Source: Patescibacteria group bacterium (lineage in GTDB: Bacteria; Patescibacteriota; Minisyncoccia; Phycocordibacterales; Phycocordibacteraceae). Taken from it: a stretch of 64,000 bases of DNA. The stretch's first letter is position 1. Each line of letters begins with the position of its first letter. This document shows positions 5,559 through 61,010 of this stretch, piece by piece. The stretch lies in contig JAIELV010000001.1 of NCBI GenBank assembly GCA_019752595.1, forward strand, positions 312,486 through 376,485, read 5' to 3'. The notes under the pieces were generated by a model that saw nothing but the letters and a program-made list of their open reading frames with translations, was not told where the DNA came from and made no database searches. Both the position numbers and the translations under genes were made by a program.

Positions 5559-5736
5559 GTGCGTCAGTATACCTGTTGCCCGTTTGGTACCTGCCTACCG
5601 GCAGGCAGGCAGGCAGGCGAAGTTGGAACCTCAGGGTAAAGGGGGCTGACCCCATTTTCGGTCTTCTATACTTTGTATAATTCTGCGCTTGATTACCAAA
5701 TTTATTCTTATGCTGGTCTATTTTCATAAAGTGCTG

Positions 5737-5755
5737 GCTGGGGAGCAGGGATTCG
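5737..5755 (-). repeat. Direct duplicate of the 19-nt 3' end of tRNA-Gln (gctggggagcagggattcg)
   Basis: Identical 19-mer at 5737-5755 and 5915-5933; the latter is the tRNA T-loop/acceptor 3' half. Confidence 0.8.
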
Positions 5756-5915
5756 GTCACGAATCACTAAGTATTTTACTCCTAGTGCTCCTAAAATACT
5801 AAGTGTTCTCGACCCCGCCTCGCCTGCCTTTCGGCATGGCTCCGGCTTTCGAATCCTGACGGAAGCAAAACTATTTGCTTCCTCTCCCAGCAAAAAATCG
5901 CTCTACTATTTTTTG

Positions 5916-5986
5916 CTGGGGAGCAGGGATTCGAACCCCAATTAAAGGCTTCAAAGGCCTCTGTCCTACCATTAGACGACTCCCCA
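5916..5986 (-). tRNA. tRNA-Gln (anticodon UUG), no encoded CCA
   Basis: Read by eye: acceptor UGGGGAG/CUCCCCA, anticodon arm GAGGC-CUUUGAA-GCCUU, T-loop TTCGAAT, discriminator G. Confidence 0.8.
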
Positions 5987-6109: not shown

Positions 6110-7051
6110 TCAACCCACCTCTTCCTGGCTCAAAAGATATTTCAAGCCGCCTACAACCGCGGCTATCTGAGCATCAATGCAGACCTCAGGGCTAACCCTT
6201 GGACTATCGGGATACACCTCTGTGGTTGTGGTATATGCAGCGTTTGAAAAGCCTGCACACAGCTTGAGTTTCTTCACAGGATAGTTGACCACTCCTTCTT
6301 GCTCGAGTGCGGTTCCGATAAGATGGCCATGTTCATCAGGTTGAGCAATGTGAGTTACCTCGTTCACCGACTCTATGATAGCCCTCTGAAAATCTGCTTG
6401 CGGATTTTCAGAATCGCCGACAGCATAAAATCCATCGGGGATCTCCGACCACTCTTCGGCGACTCCATCTCGGTCGGCTTTTGCCGGTCGGAAAATGGTG
6501 TTGTCGGTATCGGTCGTTTCGTGAAGGTCAAAATGCGCGAAGGGCTGAACTTCTTTCATCGCATCCAAGAAAAGCCTGCACTCCTCCACCGGACTTTCCT
6601 CAGTAAACCAACGATTCGGGTCAAACGCACGTGAATTCCAACGGTTAACCGTCTCGTACGCCCATGGACTGATGCACGGCACGCACACAATATTAAACTT
6701 ATCTTCAAACTGTGCAGCTGCGCGTTCCATAAAACCGAGTGCGCCTTGGACACCACTGGTTTCATAACCATGCACACCACCTGTGATTAAAACCGTTTTT
6801 TTGTCAGGAGAAAAATTCGGAGATGTTAATGCATAGAGGGGGTAACGCTCCGGATCTTGAGAGAGTGCTCCGTATTGCTGAACGTGGAACCTCTCACCAA
6901 GTTCTTTAATCTTACTGACGACTTCCTCGTCATAAGAGCGTTTGATAATTTGCTCTTTGGACCAGCGGTCGACGTCTTCCTCTCGCCACTTCCAATCTTC
7001 CATTCCAGTCAAATTGGATGCGGTGGCTTCCTTGGAAAATTGTGTTGCCAT
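6110..7051 (-). CDS. Zn-dependent carboxypeptidase-like protein (M14 / succinylglutamate desuccinylase-aspartoacylase family)
   Basis: HGYETSG and FDLHE zinc-ligand motifs. Confidence 0.65.
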   Translation of the reverse strand: MATQFSKEATASNLTGMEDWKWREEDVDRWSKEQIIKRSYDEEVVSKIKELGERFHVQQYGALSQDPERYPLYALTSPNFSPDKKTVLITGGVHGYETSGVQGALGFMERAAAQFEDKFNIVCVPCISPWAYETVNRWNSRAFDPNRWFTEESPVEECRLFLDAMKEVQPFAHFDLHETTDTDNTIFRPAKADRDGVAEEWSEIPDGFYAVGDSENPQADFQRAIIESVNEVTHIAQPDEHGHLIGTALEQEGVVNYPVKKLKLCAGFSNAAYTTTTEVYPDSPRVSPEVCIDAQIAAVVGGLKYLLSQEEVG

Positions 7052-7187
7052 ACTTACTCCAACCTACCATCTAGGCAGTTCTCAATCAAATTCCGTAATA
7101 TTGGACTTCACGGCTTTGAATTATCCGAATGCAACCAAAGCCAGCAATCGAACGCAAGACATCCCCAGCTCATCCGTCTATACTGGT

Positions 7188-8528
7188 ATGCATATGAGGC
7201 CGCTCCTTGCCATACTCCTGTTGGCACTATTCCCTTTTACATTCGCGTACGCTGAAACGCGTTCTATTTTGTTCCCCATCGACGGCGAATACAGTTTTCG
7301 AAACGACTTCTCCGAACCGCGGGACGGGGGTGCGCGCCAGCACTTAGGTATCGATATCATTGCAAGCAAAATGACTCCACTCGTTGCAGTTGCGGACGGC
7401 ACGATTACATTCATCGCAATCCCGCAGGCTTCGTGGGGCTACGCCATCACCCTTGAAGACGCAGATGGTTATTCCTACCGTTACCTGCACATCAACAACG
7501 ACACCCCTGGCACCGACGACGGTGTGGGGGGAACGCAATACGCATACGCGCCGAACCTCTACCGCGGAACGCGTGTGGTAAAAGGACAACTCTTAGGCTG
7601 GGTTGGAGATTCAGGAAATGCGGAATCCACAACGCCACACCTTCACTTTGAAATGCGCGATTCTTCGCGAACAGTATTCAATCCGTACGATTCTCTGTAC
7701 GCAGCTTCAGGCGGAATCACTTCAGGAAAATTTGAAGGTCTCACCACAAACCCCGGGCCCGAGGCAACACCCGAGGAAGAAGCCCAGTTCATTGCCACCC
7801 GCCAGCTACAGGAAGGACTGGTGGATAGACAGGTAGGTGAACTGCATACCAGACTCAAAATATTGAAATACTACACTGGCGAAATAACGGAAACGTATAC
7901 TGCAGCAACACGTGAAGCGGTTCGCAAATTCCAAAACACTGAAGGACTGGCGGCAACAGGTATTGCAGATTCTCTGACACAAAAACGCCTAGAAGAACGC
8001 GCGAAAGCAATCGCTCCTGTGCCCACACAGACCGCAACGAAAACAAGCACTGAGATGTCTCAAGGCTCATCAGGCGATGCAGTGAAAGCAGTTCAGGAAC
8101 AACTGATTGCGCTTGGCTACTTAAAATCAACTGCAACAGGATATTTCGGCCCTTTGACGCACGACGCCGTGATTGCGTTTCAAAAAGCAATGGGTATAGA
8201 CCCTATTGGCATCGTGGGACCAAAAACAAAAGCGGCACTTACAACCACTACTCCATCTACCGCTACTACCTCGGCAACTTCGGCTACGCCCGACCCGACA
8301 ACCGCGTCCACATTTACATTTACAAAACGACTTGAAGTCGGCGTTGCTAACAGCGAAGTAAAAGAGCTTCAGAAATTACTTTCAACTCTTGGATATTTTA
8401 AAGAAGAAGCCACAGGCTATTTCGGTAACATCACAAAAACAGCGGTGATTGCATTCCAGAAAGCAGAAGGTATAGAACCTTTAGGATTTGTGGGGCCCGC
8501 CACCCGCGCTGCCCTCAACGCAAAATAA
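7188..8528 (+). CDS. M23 family metallopeptidase with three C-terminal peptidoglycan-binding (PG_binding_1) repeats
   Basis: Start at MHMRPLL plus signal peptide. HLGIDII...PHLHFEM M23 motifs. Three GYFGPLT-DAVIAFQK repeats. Confidence 0.85.
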   Translation: MHMRPLLAILLLALFPFTFAYAETRSILFPIDGEYSFRNDFSEPRDGGARQHLGIDIIASKMTPLVAVADGTITFIAIPQASWGYAITLEDADGYSYRYLHINNDTPGTDDGVGGTQYAYAPNLYRGTRVVKGQLLGWVGDSGNAESTTPHLHFEMRDSSRTVFNPYDSLYAASGGITSGKFEGLTTNPGPEATPEEEAQFIATRQLQEGLVDRQVGELHTRLKILKYYTGEITETYTAATREAVRKFQNTEGLAATGIADSLTQKRLEERAKAIAPVPTQTATKTSTEMSQGSSGDAVKAVQEQLIALGYLKSTATGYFGPLTHDAVIAFQKAMGIDPIGIVGPKTKAALTTTTPSTATTSATSATPDPTTASTFTFTKRLEVGVANSEVKELQKLLSTLGYFKEEATGYFGNITKTAVIAFQKAEGIEPLGFVGPATRAALNAK

Positions 8529-28839: not shown

Positions 28840-28910
28840 GGGCGATTAGTTTAATGGTAGAACGGAGGTCTCCAAAACCTCTGGCGGGGGTTCGATTCCC
28901 TCATCGCCCG
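28840..28910 (+). tRNA. tRNA-Trp (anticodon CCA), no encoded CCA
   Basis: Acceptor GGGCGAU/AUCGCCC, anticodon arm GAGGU-CUCCAAA-ACCUC, discriminator G. Confidence 0.85.
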
Positions 28911-29040
28911 CAATGATTCATGAGCACAGCTGGGGGCTGTGTGAATGAAACATCATTGCGAGGATGATGCGGAATCGAAGCCCGGAGCGCTGGCGCGAGG
29001 GCGGGCTGTCTGATTTTTCAGCAGGAAAATACAGATAGCC

Positions 29041-29059
29041 GATTCCCTCATCGCCCGCA
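29041..29059 (+). repeat. Direct duplicate of the 19-nt 3' end of tRNA-Trp (gattccctcatcgcccgca)
   Basis: Identical to 28894-28912. 128-bp hairpin-rich spacer between the copies. Confidence 0.8.
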
Positions 29060-47061: not shown

Positions 47062-48672
47062 TTGAGTCAAAAGCGGAGTTACAATATACCTATGTTGTAT
47101 TTCCTCTACGCCCGCAAAAGCACCGACAACGAAGACATGCAGGTGTTATCCATCGAGGCACAACTTTCAGAGTTGCGCTCACTCGCCAAAAAGGAAGGAC
47201 TAGAAATTGCTGCCGAATTCATAGAAAAACAATCCGCCAAAATGCCCGGGCGTCCACACTTCAACGAAATGATTGAACGTGTTCGCAAAGGCGAAGCAGA
47301 AGGAATCCTGTGTTGGAAATTAGATCGTCTTGCAAGGAATCCCGTTGATAGCGGGCAAGTGTCGTGGCTTTTGCAGAGTGAAATTTTGAAACACATCCGC
47401 ACACCAGAACGCTCCTATTTTTCAGAAGATAGCGTTTTGCTTATGTCTGTTGAATTCGGCATGGCAAACCAGTACATTCGTGATTTGGCATACAACACCA
47501 AGCGTGGACTAAGAGAAAAAGCACGTCGTGGTGAGTTTCCAAGCGTTGCGCCTCTTGGGTATCAAAATAATCCGCGAACGAAAAGAATTTATGTTGATAA
47601 AAAGAAATCACTTCTCATTCGGAAAGCGTTTGAGTTGTATGCCGAAGGCAACAAACGATTAGAAGATATTTCACAATTCCTTTTTGAGAACGGCATCAAA
47701 ACCAAGGCGCAAAAACATTGGGGCAAGAGCGCGGGCGGAAAGCGCCTTGCCAAAGACGGGGCTAAGAAAATCCTCACCACAACCTTTTACTACGGCGATT
47801 TCTACTATTCCGGCGAGTGGTACAAGGGTACGCACACACCGATAATCACGAAACAGCTTTTTGACCAAGTGCAAAAAGTCATTGAGGCGCGCGGACATGT
47901 GCGCAAGAGCGCAAAGAACGACCCGCAAGCATTGTGTGGGTTACTGCGTTGCGGTTCGTGCGGCTGTTCCATAACCGCCGAAGTCATAACCAAGAAAAAG
48001 CAGAAGAATGGAATCGTACATCGGTACACCTATTACCGGTGTACGAAAAAGAGAGGTGCATGCGCCGAACCATACATCCGTGAGGAAGAACTGACGGCTC
48101 AACTTTCTCTAACACTTTCCAGTTTTGCTTTGCCCGAAAAATGGGCAAAGGAGATGTTTGCCTTGGCTGAAAAAGACGAGAGGGATTCGGGCATTTCCGC
48201 GACGGGCGCCCTGCAGGGACTGCGCGACCGAATTAGCGACATAGATTCCAAACTCGCCCGCCTTACCGACCTCTATGTTGAACAGGATATTGAGCGCGAT
48301 GCATACCTTGAACGCAAACGCTCTCTGATGTCGGAAAGGCGGTCATTGGACGAGCAAATCGTGCGTTTAGAGAAGGACGCGACAGCGTGGCTCCAACCAC
48401 TCCGTATGTGGATAAAAGACGCTGAAAACCTTAACCAAATTGCAAAATCCACGGACAAAGCCGTGCAAAAATCCTCCCTCCAAAAAATCTTCGGCTCCAA
48501 CCTGCATCTTTCCGCGCGCGAAGTTTCAGGAAATGCCTTAATGCCTTGGTCATATCTGCACGGGGGAACAGCGGGCGAAGCCCGAAATTTTGGAAGTCTT
48601 CCTGTGGTGCGCCGGGTTGGATTCGAACCAACGGAGACCGAAGTCAGCAGATTTACAGTCTGCCCTCGTTGA
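47062..48672 (+). CDS. Large serine recombinase (resolvase/invertase catalytic domain + recombinase domain + Zn ribbon + coiled coil); true 3' end uncertain
   Basis: YARKSTDNEDMQ...SIEAQ serine-nucleophile motif and LDRLAR. CGLLRCGSCGC...YYRCTKKRGAC zinc ribbon. The open frame runs into tRNA-Tyr. Confidence 0.85.
   Translation: MSQKRSYNIPMLYFLYARKSTDNEDMQVLSIEAQLSELRSLAKKEGLEIAAEFIEKQSAKMPGRPHFNEMIERVRKGEAEGILCWKLDRLARNPVDSGQVSWLLQSEILKHIRTPERSYFSEDSVLLMSVEFGMANQYIRDLAYNTKRGLREKARRGEFPSVAPLGYQNNPRTKRIYVDKKKSLLIRKAFELYAEGNKRLEDISQFLFENGIKTKAQKHWGKSAGGKRLAKDGAKKILTTTFYYGDFYYSGEWYKGTHTPIITKQLFDQVQKVIEARGHVRKSAKNDPQALCGLLRCGSCGCSITAEVITKKKQKNGIVHRYTYYRCTKKRGACAEPYIREEELTAQLSLTLSSFALPEKWAKEMFALAEKDERDSGISATGALQGLRDRISDIDSKLARLTDLYVEQDIERDAYLERKRSLMSERRSLDEQIVRLEKDATAWLQPLRMWIKDAENLNQIAKSTDKAVQKSSLQKIFGSNLHLSAREVSGNALMPWSYLHGGTAGEARNFGSLPVVRRVGFEPTETEVSRFTVCPR
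48463..48610 (+). repeat. Right copy of the 148-bp inverted repeat; its last 6 nt are the 3' terminus of tRNA-Tyr
   Basis: Alignment with 44317-44464 as above. The repeat ends ...cttcctgtggtgc, and tggtgc is the reverse complement of tRNA-Tyr ...GCACCA. Confidence 0.75.
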
Positions 48673-48690
48673 CCACTTGAGTACCGACGC
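48605..48690 (-). tRNA. tRNA-Tyr (anticodon GUA), long variable arm, CCA encoded
   Basis: Acceptor GCGUCGG/CCGGCGC (one G-U pair), anticodon loop CUGUAAA, T-loop TTCGAAT, 3' ACCA. Confidence 0.85.
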
Positions 48691-56837: not shown

Positions 56838-57566
56838 GTGGGTGTACGCTATTCATTCAATGAGCATTTCTTTGATAATTGGAATAAAGAAATGGCATAC
56901 GTATTAGGATATATCTTCGCAGACGGAAGCCTTGAATGCTCGCCGCGTATACGAGCACACTACCTACGGATTACCAGTATTGATTTAGAAAGAATTGTTG
57001 CCTTTAAGAAACTCCTTGCGTCTAGCCACACCATTACCAAAACGAAACCTCCCGTTGGGGAAACACAATACATGCTCCGCATTGGTAGTAAGAGGCTGTA
57101 TAAAAGCCTTCTTAGGTATAGACTCCGCCCTAGAAAATCCTTATCCGTAAAAATGCCTGAGATACCCAATCGGTTTCTGAATGATTTTGTAAGGGGATAT
57201 TTTGATGGCGATGGTTGTGTATATATTGAAAAAGCGAGGGGTGAAAAAGGAGGTAAAATTTTGAAAGGAATGCGTGTAATTTTTACAAGTGGAAGTAAAA
57301 AATTTCTTGAAGCTTTGGAGAAAAAAATTTGTGAACGGGCGGGTATAAAAAAGAAAAAAGTCACAGTAGCGCGAAGAAGTTTTCAGTTACGATACAGCAC
57401 CGACGACGGAGTTACGTTATTCAAGTTTTTATATAGAGATGTTAGTGGTATGTGCTATATGAAAAGGAAGTTGGCAAAGTTTAATGAATACTTTAAGCTT
57501 CGCCCAAAGCGCATTGATTCCGAAGTGAAATACGTATTAGAATGCGTAAACGGCACGGTACATTAA
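56838..57566 (+). CDS. Free-standing LAGLIDADG homing endonuclease (two-motif, monomeric type)
   Basis: Motifs LGYIFADGS and VRGYFDGDGCV, each followed by the expected basic-rich DNA-binding saddle regions. Confidence 0.8.
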   Translation: MGVRYSFNEHFFDNWNKEMAYVLGYIFADGSLECSPRIRAHYLRITSIDLERIVAFKKLLASSHTITKTKPPVGETQYMLRIGSKRLYKSLLRYRLRPRKSLSVKMPEIPNRFLNDFVRGYFDGDGCVYIEKARGEKGGKILKGMRVIFTSGSKKFLEALEKKICERAGIKKKKVTVARRSFQLRYSTDDGVTLFKFLYRDVSGMCYMKRKLAKFNEYFKLRPKRIDSEVKYVLECVNGTVH

Positions 57567-57590: not shown

Positions 57591-57666
57591 GGCCTGGTGG
57601 CGAAGAAGCTAACGCGGCGGTCTGCAAAACCGCTATACAGGGGTGCGAATCCCCTCCAGGCCTCCA
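57591..57666 (+). tRNA. tRNA-Cys (anticodon GCA), CCA encoded
   Basis: Acceptor GGCCUGG/CCAGGCC, anticodon arm GCGGU-CUGCAAA-ACCGC, T-arm AGGGG-TGCGAAT-CCCCT, 3' UCCA. Confidence 0.85.
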
Positions 57667-57728
57667 CAAACTTTTTAGAAAGAATAAGGAATGCGTCTAG
57701 AGTTTTTTGGTATAATGCGTGTACCATT

Positions 57729-58265
57729 ATGTCGCGCAAACGTTCTTGGACGGTGGAGGAACTGAAAAAAGCTGCTGCAAGTTCAACTAGTTACCGCCAG
57801 GTCATGAAAAAACTGAATCTGCGTGCTGCGGGTGAAAATTACGCTCAACTTCAAAAGTATTTAAAAGAGAACGACATAGACACTCAACATTTCAAAGGTA
57901 TTGCCTGGAATAAAGGTTTGCGAGGAATCGGCAAACCTCAGATACCACTTGAAAAAATCCTTGTTGAGTACAGTACATATCAAAGTTTTAAACTTAAAAA
58001 GCGTTTATTTAATGCAAAGTTGAAGAAACCATCTTGTGAGGAATGTGGCTGGGCGAAAATTGCCGAAGGAGGTTATTTACCTTTAGAGCTTGACCATATC
58101 AACGGTAACAGACATGATAATCGATTAGAGAACTTGCGAGTTCTTTGCCCGAACTGCCATAGCTTAAAACCTACACATCGTGGCAGAATGGGGAGAGGAA
58201 AAACGAAAAAACCTCTAAGTCGGGATGGTGAAATTGGTAGACACGCAACACTTAAGATGTTGTGA
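57729..58265 (+). CDS. HNH homing endonuclease (phage-type, N-terminal WT..EL helix-turn-helix-like module)
   Basis: LELDHINGNRHDNRLENLRVLCPNCHS HNH motif. The upstream open frame (from 57597) overlaps tRNA-Cys; start taken at the internal ATG. The 3' end overlaps the first 47 nt of tRNA-Leu. Confidence 0.75.
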   Translation: MSRKRSWTVEELKKAAASSTSYRQVMKKLNLRAAGENYAQLQKYLKENDIDTQHFKGIAWNKGLRGIGKPQIPLEKILVEYSTYQSFKLKKRLFNAKLKKPSCEECGWAKIAEGGYLPLELDHINGNRHDNRLENLRVLCPNCHSLKPTHRGRMGRGKTKKPLSRDGEIGRHATLKML

Positions 58266-58312: not shown

Positions 58313-59842
58313 TTATCTATCATTCCCTATCCGAAACTGATACAACGTCGGCGGTAAGAAAAAATAGATAGGATTAAATTTTGCCTTAAATGTTGAAAAA
58401 CCTTTCCACGAGGAATCTTCTCCCTGCTTCCAAAAATTTCCAAGATCGATAAAACGTACTCCTGATGCAAAAGATTCCTTAAACCATTTATCAAAAAGCC
58501 CCGTCATCAAAGGCTCGTCGCGCACTTCAGGTAAGAAAAAACCACCTTGATAGTAGGACAGCGGAAGCGCGGATGAGCGTAAATGTGCCACGCCAGCGAG
58601 AATTTTTCCGTCGCGCTTTCGACGAGCGACGAGGAATGTCATTTTGGTTTTTGGGTTTTTGCGTCGAAAATCCATTTCATACAGCATTCCGTCTTTCAGT
58701 GTGAGCGGTAATGTGCTTTTGCTGTAGGCTTTTCTAAATTCGTCAAAATCAGTTTCTTCAAGTGAATACGTATCGGCGCATTCAGATGCAAAACGCTTTC
58801 GGTCTCGCTTTCCTGTTTCTGACCACTCTCGCCAATACTCTGCGGTAAGCGGTATAAACCCAATTTTATACGCAGGCTTATCTGAAAACGCAATCCATTT
58901 TTTCGGAACGTCCAAGCGTCCCATTCTCTGCCACATCACCAGCCGTACGGGCTTTTTTTTGTCGTGAGACAACGGCAGCACCTCGGGCTCATGATCTCCT
59001 TCGTATTGCTCAAAAGAAAACGGCCACAAATTCCAATAACTTCCTCGCGGTTTCTCGCCTATGCGTGCAGGATGAAAATAACGAGGAATGCTTTCAAACG
59101 TGTTCAAGTCAGGCCACTGCCGAAGTGGGCGGTACCCGTCAGTGGCACATTTCTCAACGGTACCCCTTTGAAAGAGACCGACATAATTCCAGCTAAACAG
59201 CCACTCCCTCAGTGAGTGGAAAACAGTTCGTATCGGGATAAATAATTCTTTGTTCTTATAGACGTTTGCCAGCAGATACCCCTGCGGAGAAAGTCTCTGA
59301 TGAACAACAGTAAGAAATTCCACGTCAGCAGACAATAATGATGGTTGCTGTCCGCGAAACAAATCAATAACAATGAGGTCAAATTCTTCTTGTATTTTTT
59401 GTACCGCGTTCTTTGCGTCGTCGCAGATCATCGTGGGAAACGGATACGGCGCATAGAGTTTTAATTCTTTCGCGAGTGCAATCATTTCGGGGTCATGCTC
59501 AACAACAGTAAGCGTGGCTTCGGGAAATACACGCGAAATCATTTTCAATTCCCCACCACCACCAAGGCCGAGAAGCAGTATTTTTTTAATTCGCTGAGTA
59601 CCTCGGTACCGAGTAAGCACCTCAAGCGCATACTTCCACATAGCGTGAACCTCAGACCCCGTCTGCTCAATTCCATCAACACTTACCTGCCACGAACCGA
59701 ATTTTCGAATCGCAGTAATCGTTCCGTTTTTCTCCGACTGTCGGACAATAGATTCTGAAAACCAAGACATTAATGAGCATTGTACCCGAAGCGAGTATCG
59801 ATAAAGCATTGCCTCAAACGAAAAATTAGTTACTATACACAA
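58313..59842 (-). CDS. Fusion protein: spermidine-synthase-like SAM methyltransferase/aminopropyltransferase fold (N-terminal) plus FemAB/GNAT-like acyltransferase-like domain (C-terminal)
   Basis: ILLLGLGGGGE...VVEHDP...ICDDA...DLIVIDLF spermidine-synthase-like motifs. The C-terminal ~250 aa resembles aminoacyl-transferase/FemAB-type folds. Weak. Confidence 0.5.
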   Translation of the reverse strand: MCIVTNFSFEAMLYRYSLRVQCSLMSWFSESIVRQSEKNGTITAIRKFGSWQVSVDGIEQTGSEVHAMWKYALEVLTRYRGTQRIKKILLLGLGGGGELKMISRVFPEATLTVVEHDPEMIALAKELKLYAPYPFPTMICDDAKNAVQKIQEEFDLIVIDLFRGQQPSLLSADVEFLTVVHQRLSPQGYLLANVYKNKELFIPIRTVFHSLREWLFSWNYVGLFQRGTVEKCATDGYRPLRQWPDLNTFESIPRYFHPARIGEKPRGSYWNLWPFSFEQYEGDHEPEVLPLSHDKKKPVRLVMWQRMGRLDVPKKWIAFSDKPAYKIGFIPLTAEYWREWSETGKRDRKRFASECADTYSLEETDFDEFRKAYSKSTLPLTLKDGMLYEMDFRRKNPKTKMTFLVARRKRDGKILAGVAHLRSSALPLSYYQGGFFLPEVRDEPLMTGLFDKWFKESFASGVRFIDLGNFWKQGEDSSWKGFSTFKAKFNPIYFFLPPTLYQFRIGNDR

Positions 59843-59973
59843 ATCCCGCCCACAGCTGCAGTTGGTAAGCCGCCTACGGCGTCTTGCTCCAGCTGCGCTC
59901 GGACGTCATGAGAGCAAGCTCTCGCGACGCTCCTCGCTGGCTGGAGTAGAGCAGTTTTTTAAAGTACAGATAT

Positions 59974-60046
59974 CCGCCCTTAGCTCAGTTGGTAGAGCAG
60001 CTCCCTCTTAAGGAGACGGTCGTAGGTTCGAATCCTACAGGGCGGA
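59974..60046 (+). tRNA. tRNA-Lys (anticodon CUU), no encoded CCA
   Basis: Acceptor CCGCCCU/AGGGCGG, anticodon loop CUCUUAA, T-arm GTAGG-TTCGAAT-CCTAC. Confidence 0.8.
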
Positions 60047-60484
60047 CTCGCGAAGCGAGTCCTGTAAAGAGAGCGCTGGTGGGCGCATCCTTACCCTGAA
60101 AGCCTGCCCGGTGCGCGTAGCGCCAGGCTTACAGGGCGGACTGAAGCGTAGCGTAAGGACGCCCTAGCAAGTTCGGGGAACTTGCGTGTAGGATTCGAAG
60201 ACCTTGTGAGCATTTTTTCAGAGCATGCGAATGAAAAAATCCACAAGGTGTACTGCTCCCGTAGGGAGAGAATCCTTCCCTATGTACAGGGCGGACCATG
60301 ACAAAAACGCCTCCCATGCGGGAGGTTTTTTGCTTGGTCCGCGGGCGCAGGTATATTTTTGTTTACCGAAGGTAAGGCAAAAATACCGAGCCGGGGATCG
60401 CGGAAAATCTCCGTCAGGAGATTTATCCGTGTCCGGACCGCGACGAGAGCTGTGACGACGGAGGTCCTGCCTACAGAGCGGACT
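60036..60484 (+). repeat. Four direct copies of the tRNA-Lys 3' segment TACAG(G/A)GCGGAC(U): 60036-60048 (in the tRNA), 60130-60142, 60285-60297, 60472-60484 (one mismatch), separated by hairpin-rich spacers that include a degenerate T-arm copy
   Basis: Read directly. gtaggattcgaagacc at ~60189 mimics the tRNA-Lys T-arm gtaggttcgaatcctac. Confidence 0.7.
60304..60331 (+). terminator. Hairpin cctccc-atgc-gggagg followed by T6 (intrinsic terminator-like)
   Basis: Lies within the tRNA-Lys to tRNA-Leu spacer. Confidence 0.5.
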
Positions 60485-60594
60485 TATAGTAAAGTTCCTG
60501 ATATTGTATAGAACAGTCGCTGGGGTAAGCAAAGCTTTCCTCAGCTCGTTCGAAGAACATAGAAATGCTAACATCTCTATGTTCCTTCTCACTC

Positions 60595-60675
60595 GCTGGG
60601 GTGGTGAAATTGGTAGACACGCCTGCCTTAGGAGCAGGTCCGCAAGGGTTGGAGGTTCGAGTCCTCTCCCCAGCA
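60595..60675 (+). tRNA. tRNA-Leu (anticodon UAG), long variable arm, no encoded CCA
   Basis: Acceptor GCUGGGG/CCCCAGC, anticodon arm CCUGC-CUUAGGA-GCAGG. Confidence 0.85.
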
Positions 60676-60728
60676 CAAAACAGCTAATTCCCAACAAATG
60701 TGCTACACTTAGTATAGCACAAGGTGGG

Positions 60729-61010
60729 TTAATTCCCTCCTGGAAGCCCGACGCCAGGGAAAATGGTATTCGTCGCGATACGAAGGATGGTAAAGACGGA
60801 GACCATGATAAAGAACCCAATAACTCCCCAAATCATGTGTGTTCTTCCTGTTTCGCGTGCTTTCGGGTCGTCAGATTTACTGATAAACGTAATCATACCG
60901 TTCACGAAATACCACATCGCGAGCGCGAATAACAAAAGAATTATTGGCTGTATTATGAGCCCCGTTACTTTTCCGATAAATACCGTGAGTGCGTCGTTGG
61001 GTGGATTCAT
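60729..61010 (-). CDS. TrbC/VirB2-like pilin-type small membrane protein (paralog 1)
   Basis: Two hydrophobic helices separated by a short polar loop. About 93 aa. Confidence 0.5.
   Translation of the reverse strand: MNPPNDALTVFIGKVTGLIIQPIILLLFALAMWYFVNGMITFISKSDDPKARETGRTHMIWGVIGFFIMVSVFTILRIATNTIFPGVGLPGGN

Follow-up and report, generated by a model that had tools for sequence, protein, structure and literature searches.

What fills the spacer between the genes of tRNA-Lys(CUU) and tRNA-Leu(UAG) in this Patescibacteria contig, and why does the 3' end of tRNA-Lys recur along it? We addressed this question in the 64,000-nucleotide (nt) stretch analyzed here (the window). An earlier examination of the letters alone (the sequence-only reading) had proposed either serial insertion and decay at the tRNA-Lys 3' end, leaving stacked attachment (att) scars, or a repeat family of tRNA fragments. 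Our analysis suggests, with moderate confidence, that the spacer holds three diverged members of a superfamily of structured elements of ~95–190 nt, which contain no open reading frame (ORF), lie behind the tRNAs of Patescibacteria, share the architecture of the RtT repeats of Escherichia coli and would be released as processed trailer RNAs. The pattern proved wider than that reading had seen: these are structured repeats linked to tRNAs, built like RtT in a form particular to Patescibacteria, and the Lys units are not a pile of decaying att scars.

The spacer is 548 nt long and is bordered by the following two genes.

59974–60046, plus strand: tRNA-Lys(CUU), called by ARAGORN and scoring 68.9 bits with the Rfam tRNA family; CCA is not encoded, and the 3' end (60036–60047) is repeat copy 1
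60595–60676, plus strand: tRNA-Leu(UAG), called by ARAGORN and scoring 58 bits with Rfam

The 12-mer TACAGRGCGGAC, with one mismatch or fewer, was found at 60036, 60130, 60285 and 60472, always on the plus strand and at no other site in the 64-kb window. The chance expectation is 0.29, and four or more copies appeared in none of 100 shuffles. The four copies and the spacings of 94, 155 and 187 reported by the sequence-only reading were borne out. The repeat family reaches 15 nt. Copy 1 lies within tRNA-Lys, as had been said, and represents the T-stem and the acceptor 3' strand of this tRNA. The stretch from tRNA-Lys to tRNA-Leu, with both tRNAs included, folded much more stably than its shuffles (z-score -6.95).

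Known classes of sequence were also considered for the spacer. Inside 60048–60594, ARAGORN called no tRNA gene or pseudogene and RF00005 gave no match even at E<=10, and no Rfam family matched any of the units at the gathering threshold or at E<=10. Transfer-messenger RNA, group I/II introns, retrons, known self-cleaving ribozymes and Y RNA were weighed on their motifs and dropped without Rfam or ARAGORN support. The repeat is not like that of a CRISPR locus (an array of clustered short palindromic repeats set at regular intervals), in agreement with the sequence-only reading: it is 12–15 nt long and not ~25–40 nt, it is spaced at 94, 155 and 187, and Tandem Repeats Finder reported no array across the Lys units because the unit bodies differ. 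The terminal inverted repeats and short target-site duplication of miniature inverted-repeat transposable elements were not seen in the elements either; their inverted repeat is formed by an internal stretch and the flanking repeat itself, not by two element termini, and the repeats are 17–22 nt of one specific target. The 200-amino-acid (aa) ORF on the minus strand (60218–60820) is spurious, as had been suspected: Pfam gave no match for it, and it crosses tRNA-Leu in antisense.

Each of the three Lys units (60048–60142, 60143–60297 and 60298–60484) is closed by a tail copy, which is 11–13 nt long here, and each has a stretch complementary to the tRNA-Lys 3' end. Their parts are given below; numbers such as L084 denote loci of other genomes, and P2, P4 and P5 are helices of the plan described later.

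60048–60142, plus strand: unit 1 (95 nt), from the minimum free energy (MFE) fold, with an ortholog in L084
60048–60058, plus strand: GAA-triloop hairpin of unit 1 (MFE fold)
60059–60062, plus strand: GTCC of unit 1, pairing with GGAC of the tail copy (MFE fold)
60089–60141, plus strand: conserved hairpin of unit 1; the pairing partners of CCCTG and AAGCCTG are CAGGCTT and CAGGG in tail copy 2 (60130–60142)
60143–60297, plus strand: unit 2 (155 nt), type A-like, from its 13-nt antisense match, its fold and its likeness to the L058 element
60159–60165, plus strand: antisense of the acceptor strand in unit 2, ACGCCCT
60166–60185, plus strand: P2 hairpin of unit 2
60187–60199, plus strand: antisense of the T stem and loop in unit 2, TGTAGGATTCGAA, a perfect 13-nt match (p=0.005)
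60200–60249, plus strand: long hairpin of unit 2
60256–60268, plus strand: hairpin CTCCC-GTA-GGGAG of unit 2
60270–60296, plus strand: end of unit 2, with GAATCCT, an 8-nt insert and tail copy 3, followed by CCA
60298–60484, plus strand: unit 3 (187 nt), type C, from the terminator scan, its fold and its likeness to the L008 Arg and L004 Lys elements
60309–60331, plus strand: terminator-like hairpin of unit 3 with T6 (terminator scan)
60336–60351, plus strand: 5' strand of the closing stem of unit 3, GGTCCGC..GCAGG
60350–60387 and 60405–60424, plus strand: two hairpins of unit 3
60436–60459, plus strand: P5-type motif of unit 3, GACCGCGACGAGAGCTGTGACGAC
60466–60484, plus strand: end of unit 3, with CCTGC and tail copy 4 (G to A)

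The sequence-only reading had taken 'gtaggattcgaagacc' for a degenerate direct copy of the T arm. This did not hold; the feature is instead TGTAGGATTCGAA, the perfect reverse complement of tRNA-Lys 60027–60039. Its terminator-like hairpin with T6 was recovered by our scan (hairpin at 60309–60326, then TTTTTT), and so was the duplicate of the tRNA-Leu 5' end (CAGTCGCTGGGGT at 60514 and CACTCGCTGGGGT at 60590). The unit 3 region and L004 have in common the motif GAGAGCTGTGACGAC and, downstream, the leader TTCCTGAT.

The same design was found behind two more tRNAs, each with its own tail, and the idea of a tRNA-fragment repeat family is supported. Elements were thus found at three of the eight tRNAs of the window (Lys, Gln and Trp), and all of them directly follow their tRNA on the same strand. 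The last 19 nt of tRNA-Gln recur exactly 178 nt downstream, and the last 20 nt of tRNA-Trp recur 147 nt downstream. The core of the Gln element is GCC-GGA-GC..GC-GA-GGC, followed by a long P5 hairpin, a terminal exact copy of the 19-nt tRNA-Gln tail and CCA, while that of the Trp element is GCCC-GGA-GCG-CTGG-CGC-GA-GGGC.

5737–5914, minus strand: type A element behind tRNA-Gln (5915–5986, minus strand), 70.7 bits with our model R1 (E=9e-15), with an exact 16-mer repeat
5891–5848, minus strand: antisense arm and P2 hairpin of the Gln element
28912–29059, plus strand: type A element behind tRNA-Trp (28840–28911), 53.6 bits with model R1 (E=1.2e-10)
28958–28979, plus strand: antisense arm of the Trp element, GCGAGGATGATGCGGAATCGAA, which matches the Trp T loop TTCGATT
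29040–29059, plus strand: exact 20-nt copy of the tRNA-Trp tail, then an intrinsic terminator

The design is also widespread in other genomes. The 3' 20-mer of tRNA-Lys(CUU) is common to 32 species, mostly Patescibacteria, and a scan for it with one genome kept per species gave 32 loci. In 11 of the 32, the tRNA-Lys tail recurs 134–500 nt downstream with no second tRNA between. Among 112 tRNAs of the Patescibacteria loci and the window, the 3' 14-mer was found again in the same sense within 600 nt downstream in 21, at 125–430 nt, compared with none on the opposite strand, one upstream in sense and none upstream in antisense. Non-Lys tRNAs, which were unselected by the search, showed the tail recurrence in 7 of 79 cases (Gln, Trp, Met three times, Pro and Leu), and a covariance-model search added elements behind tRNA-Arg in L051 (63.9 bits), L017 and L008, none of which had been used in training. 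In the window and 35 loci (310 kb in total), every match of model R1 adjoined a tRNA. Well-preserved repeats run from C56/G57 of the T loop to the discriminator plus 1–4 nt. A metagenome scan with the pattern ACAGGGCGGACN{140,170}ACAGGGCGGAC returned 50 loci, of which only L051, L058 and L062 were useful; in the other 47 the repeat was coding or a tandem repeat, and it had no tRNA-Lys. The CCA after the tail copy was considered as a sign of retro-origin and rejected, as it occurs only in unit 2, the Gln element and L002/L026; because the C is fixed, chance alone would give about as many. Our literature searches found no description of such elements in Patescibacteria.

Type A is the commonest kind of element. 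It may open with an optional 5' part, either a small GAA-triloop hairpin or a terminator-like hairpin, and then runs in the order of the complement of the acceptor 3' strand, P2, the complement of the T stem and loop, 'AA', P4, P5 and the tail copy. P2 is a perfect hairpin of 8–10 base pairs, with a CUGC loop in several elements on different tRNAs. P4 has the pattern GCC-GGA-GCG...CGC-GA-GGC with an invariant GGA/GA internal loop, and P5 in one type A subfamily is GGUCGCGAC...GUUGUGACC with a conserved G.U-C.G-G.U run. According to the folds and pair counts, the complement and the tail copy pair into a long helix like an acceptor/T arm, which closes a multi-hairpin domain. The plan is kept with different inner modules in type B (L018/L062, L007 and the Met element of L013) and in type C (unit 3 of the window and L004), the latter retaining the P5 motif GAGAGCTGTGAC. 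At the tRNA-Met of the related genome L013 (4304–4376), the type B non-coding element stands where L001 and L023 carry an ORF resembling GIY-YIG, and the last 15 nt (GCGACGTGAGATTCC) are common.

The antisense arm follows the neighbouring tRNA: it is GGATTCGAA for Lys and Gln, GGAATCGAA for Trp with its T loop TTCGATT, TGGGAATTGAA for Pro, GAGGGAATCGAA for one Arg and CGGACTCGAA for Met. An exact antisense word of 9–13 nt was found in 15 of 25 elements, and p<=0.01 compared with shuffles was reached in 11 of the 25. The duplex energy of arm and tail (RNAduplex) had a median z-score of -0.85, a measure that is without power in GC-rich sequence. When the tail copy was removed, the Gln element of the window was closest to the tRNA-Lys element of L013, from a Yanofskybacteria genome (z=19), and the Trp element to the Lys element of L026 (z=7). 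Unit 3 was closest to the tRNA-Arg element of L008 (z=10) and the Lys element of L004 (z=7.5), and the 5' half of unit 2 to the Lys element of L058 (z=12). Elements on different tRNAs therefore share their inner modules, with arms exchanged according to the tRNA beside them.

A selected fold on the tRNA-sense strand is indicated by the related cores beside different tRNAs, covariation, strand bias and the conservation of unit 1. The pairs were counted in a covariance-model alignment of 15 elements (14 distinct), as variable inserts kept MAFFT from aligning the whole elements and the P4 and P2 hairpins. Standard pairs filled 83.7% of the cells compared with 74.7% in shuffles (0/500) and 34–46% with the partner slid, the covariation score was 0.229 versus 0.116 (0/500 shuffles), and both sides had changed in 13 cells (0/500 shuffles), although the alignment is fitted to the model and the sequences are related, so that these shuffle counts are not probabilities. 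The inner P4 helix (P4b) showed double changes in three of three pairs, and the outer pairs of P4 appeared as GCC/GGC, GGC/GCC, GUC/GAC and GCC/GGU. In the Arg element of L008, an A.T pair has become G.C with both strands changed, departing from the sequence of its own tRNA. In 22 of 25 elements the more stable fold is that of the tRNA-sense strand and not of its complement, with a mean difference of 7 kcal/mol (Wilcoxon p = 9e-5).

An insert of 207 nt with the tail repeat was also observed behind tRNA-Lys(UUU) (7414–7487, minus strand) at ~7207–7413 of L032, a genome labelled as a Pseudomonadota metagenome-assembled genome. Its opposite strand folds better (+14 kcal/mol); the insert may represent another sort of element, or its contig may have been binned wrongly.

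The units are gained and lost between genomes. In L025 a terminator directly follows tRNA-Lys, whereas in L002/L026 the orthologous terminator follows a hairpin, an element and a repeat, and the empty and filled sites differ by exactly one element and one repeat. L019 carries two identical units of 160 nt in tandem, an Arg-type element in L002 is reduced to its first 45 nt, and the tail copy is lost or decayed in L017. In the relative L084, the block of the 5' 'ghost' (described below), tRNA-Lys and unit 1 is ~95% identical to the window, compared with 65% identity of the neighbouring protein; the last 53 nt of unit 1 show one difference, and its 5' hairpins have changed in a compensatory manner (TCGC/GCGA to CAAC/GTTG). 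Either unit 1 is old and constrained, or the block was transferred recently. L084 has tRNA-Leu(UAG) upstream and lacks units 2 and 3, which indicates that these two are later additions. The sequence-only reading held that short, repeat-free spacers in relatives would speak for recent scars and that conserved repeats with covariation would favour a functional RNA. Both were found, the former as Lys–Leu spacers of 3 nt in L016 and L012; the covariation therefore decides what the units are, and the short spacers show that units come and go. The serial addition of that reading is thus supported, while its decaying att scars of larger elements are not: the array and the DNA next to it hold no integrase or phage gene, the bodies belong to structured families with antisense partners and covariation, and unit 1 is conserved.

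The closest known counterpart is RtT. The E. coli tyrT repeats were reportedly described in 1978 and the rtT RNA in 1991. The tyrT–tyrV locus of E. coli has four RtT-type units, one between the tRNA genes and three of 178 nt after tyrV, and the final 19 nt of every unit are those of tRNA-Tyr, CCA included; the annotated rttR RNA has its 3' end exactly at this CCA. In the RF00391 consensus of Rfam, the closing helix is formed by GGGGAAGGAU (antisense) paired to AUCCUUCCCC (tail copy), with a multi-hairpin domain inside, and RtT matches, present in 4741 of 5426 E. coli genomes, number between 1 and 14 per matching genome. Small RNAs of the RtT family adjoining tRNA-Asn and tRNA-Lys have been detected on Northern blots in Actinobacillus (Pasteurellaceae), and the same paper states that processing of tyrT and other tRNA operons sets RtT RNAs free (PMC4986893). 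The elements of Patescibacteria resemble RtT, whose units are ~130–180 nt, in lying directly behind tRNA genes on the same strand and often in tandem, in ending with a copy of the tRNA tail (11–22 nt in Patescibacteria, 19 nt in E. coli), in closing a multi-hairpin domain with GA-rich motifs by a helix of the antisense stretch and the tail copy, and in a copy number that varies between strains; the 'GAGAA' variant of the antisense T loop is also present in L021 and the Arg element of L051. On the other hand, the antisense arm in Patescibacteria often covers the acceptor strand too and is broken by the P2 hairpin, CCA is usually not encoded, and the subfamilies A, B, C and the short unit-1 type look unrelated yet share the plan, in a different phylum.

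Two further kinds of known system are comparable. Genomic islands that carry an integrase, prophages, and the derivatives of both that have lost it (cis-mobilizable elements, CIMEs) are flanked by direct repeats of tRNA 3' ends. The likeness lies in a 16–22-nt direct repeat of the tRNA 3' end that reaches a few nucleotides beyond it, in clean empty and filled sites and in tandem accretion at one tRNA, whereas the units here are 95–190 nt long and gene-free, contain the complement of the repeat, have covarying and strand-biased helices of the RNA type and use one core for seven tRNA species. Processing signals like tRNAs are known from the t-elements of plant mitochondria, the mascRNA of MALAT1 and tRNA-linked small nucleolar RNAs. 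By analogy, the helix like an acceptor/T arm could recruit RNase P or RNase Z to set the RNA ends, although those signals mimic the generic tRNA shape, while the helix here is the exact tail of the neighbouring tRNA without T loop or elbow.

The design appears to have a counterpart on the 5' side of tRNA genes, which occupies 60519–60594 and, judging from its sequence, copies the acceptor end of tRNA-Leu(UAG).

60485–60518, plus strand: conserved leader of tRNA-Leu(UAG) (TTCCTGATATTGTATAG...), with homologous sequence immediately before tRNA-Leu(UAG) in L004 and L024
60519–60594, plus strand: 5'-side element of tRNA-Leu(UAG), forming a 13-nt direct repeat with the tRNA-Leu 5' end, with homologs in L089
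60519–60545, plus strand: acceptor-stem minihelix GCTGGGG-TAAGCAAAGCTTT-CCTCAGC, which copies the tRNA-Leu acceptor stem
60546–60594, plus strand: conserved module of TCGTTCGAAGA, a hairpin and CCTTCTCACTC
59846–59954, plus strand: tRNA-Lys 5' 'ghost', from local alignment to tRNA-Lys nt 1–28

The Kaiserbacteria contig L089 (2131–2252) has two such 5'-side modules in tandem before tRNA-Lys. In this family the minihelix is built around an invariant GTAAGCAAAGCTTTC. Compared with the window, the L089 modules keep an invariant 15-nt core and have 7 of 7 arm pairs swapped to CCGCCCG/CGGGCGG of tRNA-Lys. The ghost consists of a diverged copy of nt 1–22 (CCGCCCACAGCTGCAGTTGGTA), a structured insert of ~75–85 nt at the D-loop position (CGGACGTCATGAG-hairpin-CGCGACGCTCCTC) and nt 19–27 (GTAGAGCAG). 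It is ~95% identical in L084 (3600–3733), where the GAGAGC/GCTCTC hairpin shows a compensatory change of G.C to A.T, and the module of its insert is also found downstream of tRNA-Lys in L089 (~2355–2440) with a compensatory A.T to T.A change. At 6382–6475 of L026, a duplicate of tRNA-Lys nt 1–24 with a 43-nt D-loop insert of two hairpins lies directly upstream of the functional tRNA-Lys.

On the reading of the units as RtT-type trailer elements, they would be transcribed as the trailer of the upstream tRNA. The enzymes of tRNA maturation would handle the tail copy in its helix as they do a tRNA 3' end and release stable RNAs of unit length, which we liken to E. coli because the rtT RNA ends exactly at the tail-copy CCA. 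The antisense arm would keep the spare tail copy from competing with the 3' strand of the tRNA itself. The arrays could grow, shrink and vanish by recombination or slippage between the direct repeats, and could be exchanged with the highly conserved tRNA serving as homology.

Several observations weigh against this reading. RF00391, with which the E. coli units score 133–137 bits, gave no match at the gathering threshold (45 bits) in the whole window and none at E<=10 in 59800–60800, 5700–5930 and 1150–1650 of L001. Model R1 gave the E. coli RtT 5.6 bits, and the sole notable link in sequence, the 14-mer CGAGCGAAGCGAGA common to the RtT consensus and the P5 loop of L001, had p=0.003 before correction for 25 comparisons; we therefore claim a shared architecture and not membership of RtT. 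The exact antisense matches of units 1 and 3 are 6 nt and not significant alone, and their closing pairing is present in the MFE fold but short. In the predicted fold of unit 1, the discriminator and C74 are paired (GTCC/GGAC), so that a cut of the tRNA 3' type would be hindered. A terminator-like hairpin opens about half of the elements, unit 3 included, and could stop read-through from the tRNA. The locus sample was seeded on one tRNA-Lys 20-mer, and the pair counts, for the reasons given with them, are support and not proof. In L013, L023 and L051, the repeat runs 5–10 nt past the tRNA, which points to an event at the DNA level, and insertion by an integrase, too, classically leaves repeats that extend from the T loop to a few nucleotides beyond the tRNA.

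These last points bring in the view that integrative elements such as phages or islands, using a site-specific recombinase, inserted time and again at the 3' end of tRNA-Lys, each duplicating the tail and then losing almost all of its content, and left neutral att scars. We consider it unlikely, but it retains a certain weight, given that the repeat is just like the footprint of an integrase and that gene-bearing insertions with the same repeats exist. Repeats of 17–22 nt that start in the T loop and stop shortly after the tRNA are the classical signature of islands, empty and filled sites are both present, and the extension past the tRNA at the three loci fits as well. In L031 (~6930–7429), downstream of tRNA-Lys (7430–7503, minus strand), the 500 nt between the repeats hold a partial tRNA-Lys 3' half, whose differing T stem and acceptor suggest a foreign origin, and an ORF for a small membrane protein; this insert looks like a true integration remnant. 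An ORF of ~85 aa resembling GIY-YIG lies between tail repeats of 22–25 nt behind tRNA-Met in L001 (602–675) and L023 (4580–4653, re-oriented). The window itself has a large serine recombinase gene (47062–48672, plus strand; 536 aa, with Resolvase, Recombinase and Zn_ribbon_recom domains), the end of which overlaps tRNA-Tyr (48605–48690, minus strand) and which may mark an integrated element there. On the other hand, no integrase or phage gene was found in or beside any small unit, the Lys repeats enclose no recombinase or mobile-element gene (the sole ORF across the array being the spurious one), and two scans of viral contigs were without a match. Such scars would not be expected to form conserved structured families with covariation and strand bias, or to include a unit 1 far more conserved than the neighbouring protein. 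A fixed att specificity does not account for the same core with arms re-matched to seven tRNA species, and the antisense arm would have no role. It is quite unlikely, in our view, that the elements are instead mobile and target themselves, with the antisense arm as an RNA or single-stranded DNA guide to the 3' end of the tRNA gene and the tail copy as target duplication. The arms always fit the neighbouring tRNA while cores are common across tRNAs and phyla-level lineages, the indel is exactly one element and one repeat, unlike units stand in tandem in the window, and the 5'-side family follows the same logic with its invariant core and its 7 of 7 swapped arm pairs. However, no associated enzyme was identified, neither orphan or in-transit copies nor a new insertion were seen, and we know of no mechanism that writes a new 20-nt guide. 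The conservation of unit 1 between relatives suggests residence and not recent movement, and selection for pairing after duplication explains the pattern equally.

The remaining two views concern the spacer as a signal or as debris. The units might terminate the tRNA-Lys transcript and provide cut sites for RNase P or RNase Z without any free functional RNA, as many units open with terminator-like hairpins, acceptor-stem mimics stand exactly at unit ends and before tRNA-Leu, and RtT is classed as 'Cis-reg' in Rfam. We regard this as very doubtful: spacers of 3 nt suffice in relatives, three different serial units exceed the needs of punctuation, the conserved internal loops (GGA/GA, G.U-C.G-G.U) suggest a specific partner, and the RtT of E. 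coli and Actinobacillus accumulates as discrete RNAs. That the repeats are fragments of tRNA-Lys from slippage or unequal crossing-over, drifting without function, has hardly any probability in our estimation. The 8-nt insert in the tail region of unit 2, the G to A change in copy 4 and the truncated remnants elsewhere (the Arg remnant of L002, the decayed repeat of L017) would suit it, but the unit bodies are unrelated to tRNA-Lys and related to elements in other genomes, the helices covary, and the conservation of unit 1 in L084 is taken as purifying selection. The R1 matches, covariation, L084 conservation and core likeness have largely refuted it.

The reading as RtT-type trailer elements turns a curiosity of one E. 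coli locus into a family open to comparison, in a distant and genome-reduced phylum and at seven or more tRNA species, and the constrained positions, the chosen tRNAs and the co-occurring genes become comparable questions. The elements create spurious ORFs and may go unannotated, since the tRNA tools and Rfam were silent here. The flanks of tRNAs in streamlined genomes also appear to be active in the gain and loss of small structured DNA. A bolder proposal, for which we would give only a slim chance, is that RtT-type elements from E. coli to Patescibacteria constitute a programmable selfish system, in which an RNA core with exchangeable arms reads the ends of tRNA genes (3' tail or 5' acceptor strand), guides insertion and duplicates the matched segment with no known enzyme. 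If the arms did direct insertion, this would be a new kind of guided mobility.

The spacer belongs to the tRNA order Cys, Leu(UAA), Lys(CUU) and Leu(UAG), which is an old cluster. The four genes are 2–32 nt apart in L016, with 32 nt between tRNA-Cys and tRNA-Leu(UAA), and this latter gap is 1 nt in L012. In the window, the cluster is pulled apart by a LAGLIDADG ORF, an HNH ORF, a 509-aa gene and the 548-nt spacer, and small T4SS-pilin genes and a short IF-2 lie nearby. Over 95% of its length, the 509-aa ORF is 100% identical to an NCBI protein of a 'Patescibacteria group bacterium', for which a later start codon was called.

56838–57566, plus strand: LAGLIDADG ORF, just upstream of tRNA-Cys
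57597–58265, plus strand: HNH endonuclease ORF, occupying the space from tRNA-Cys to tRNA-Leu(UAA); the ORF as called extends into both genes

A weak match (score 24) to nt 20–44 of tRNA-Leu(UAA) was observed at 57877–57904, in the HNH ORF region that precedes this tRNA, and may be a ghost fragment or chance. In the tRNA-Lys(CUU) of the window, the first base pair is C1 with G72 (CCGCCCU/AGGGCGG), an uncommon start among bacterial tRNAs.

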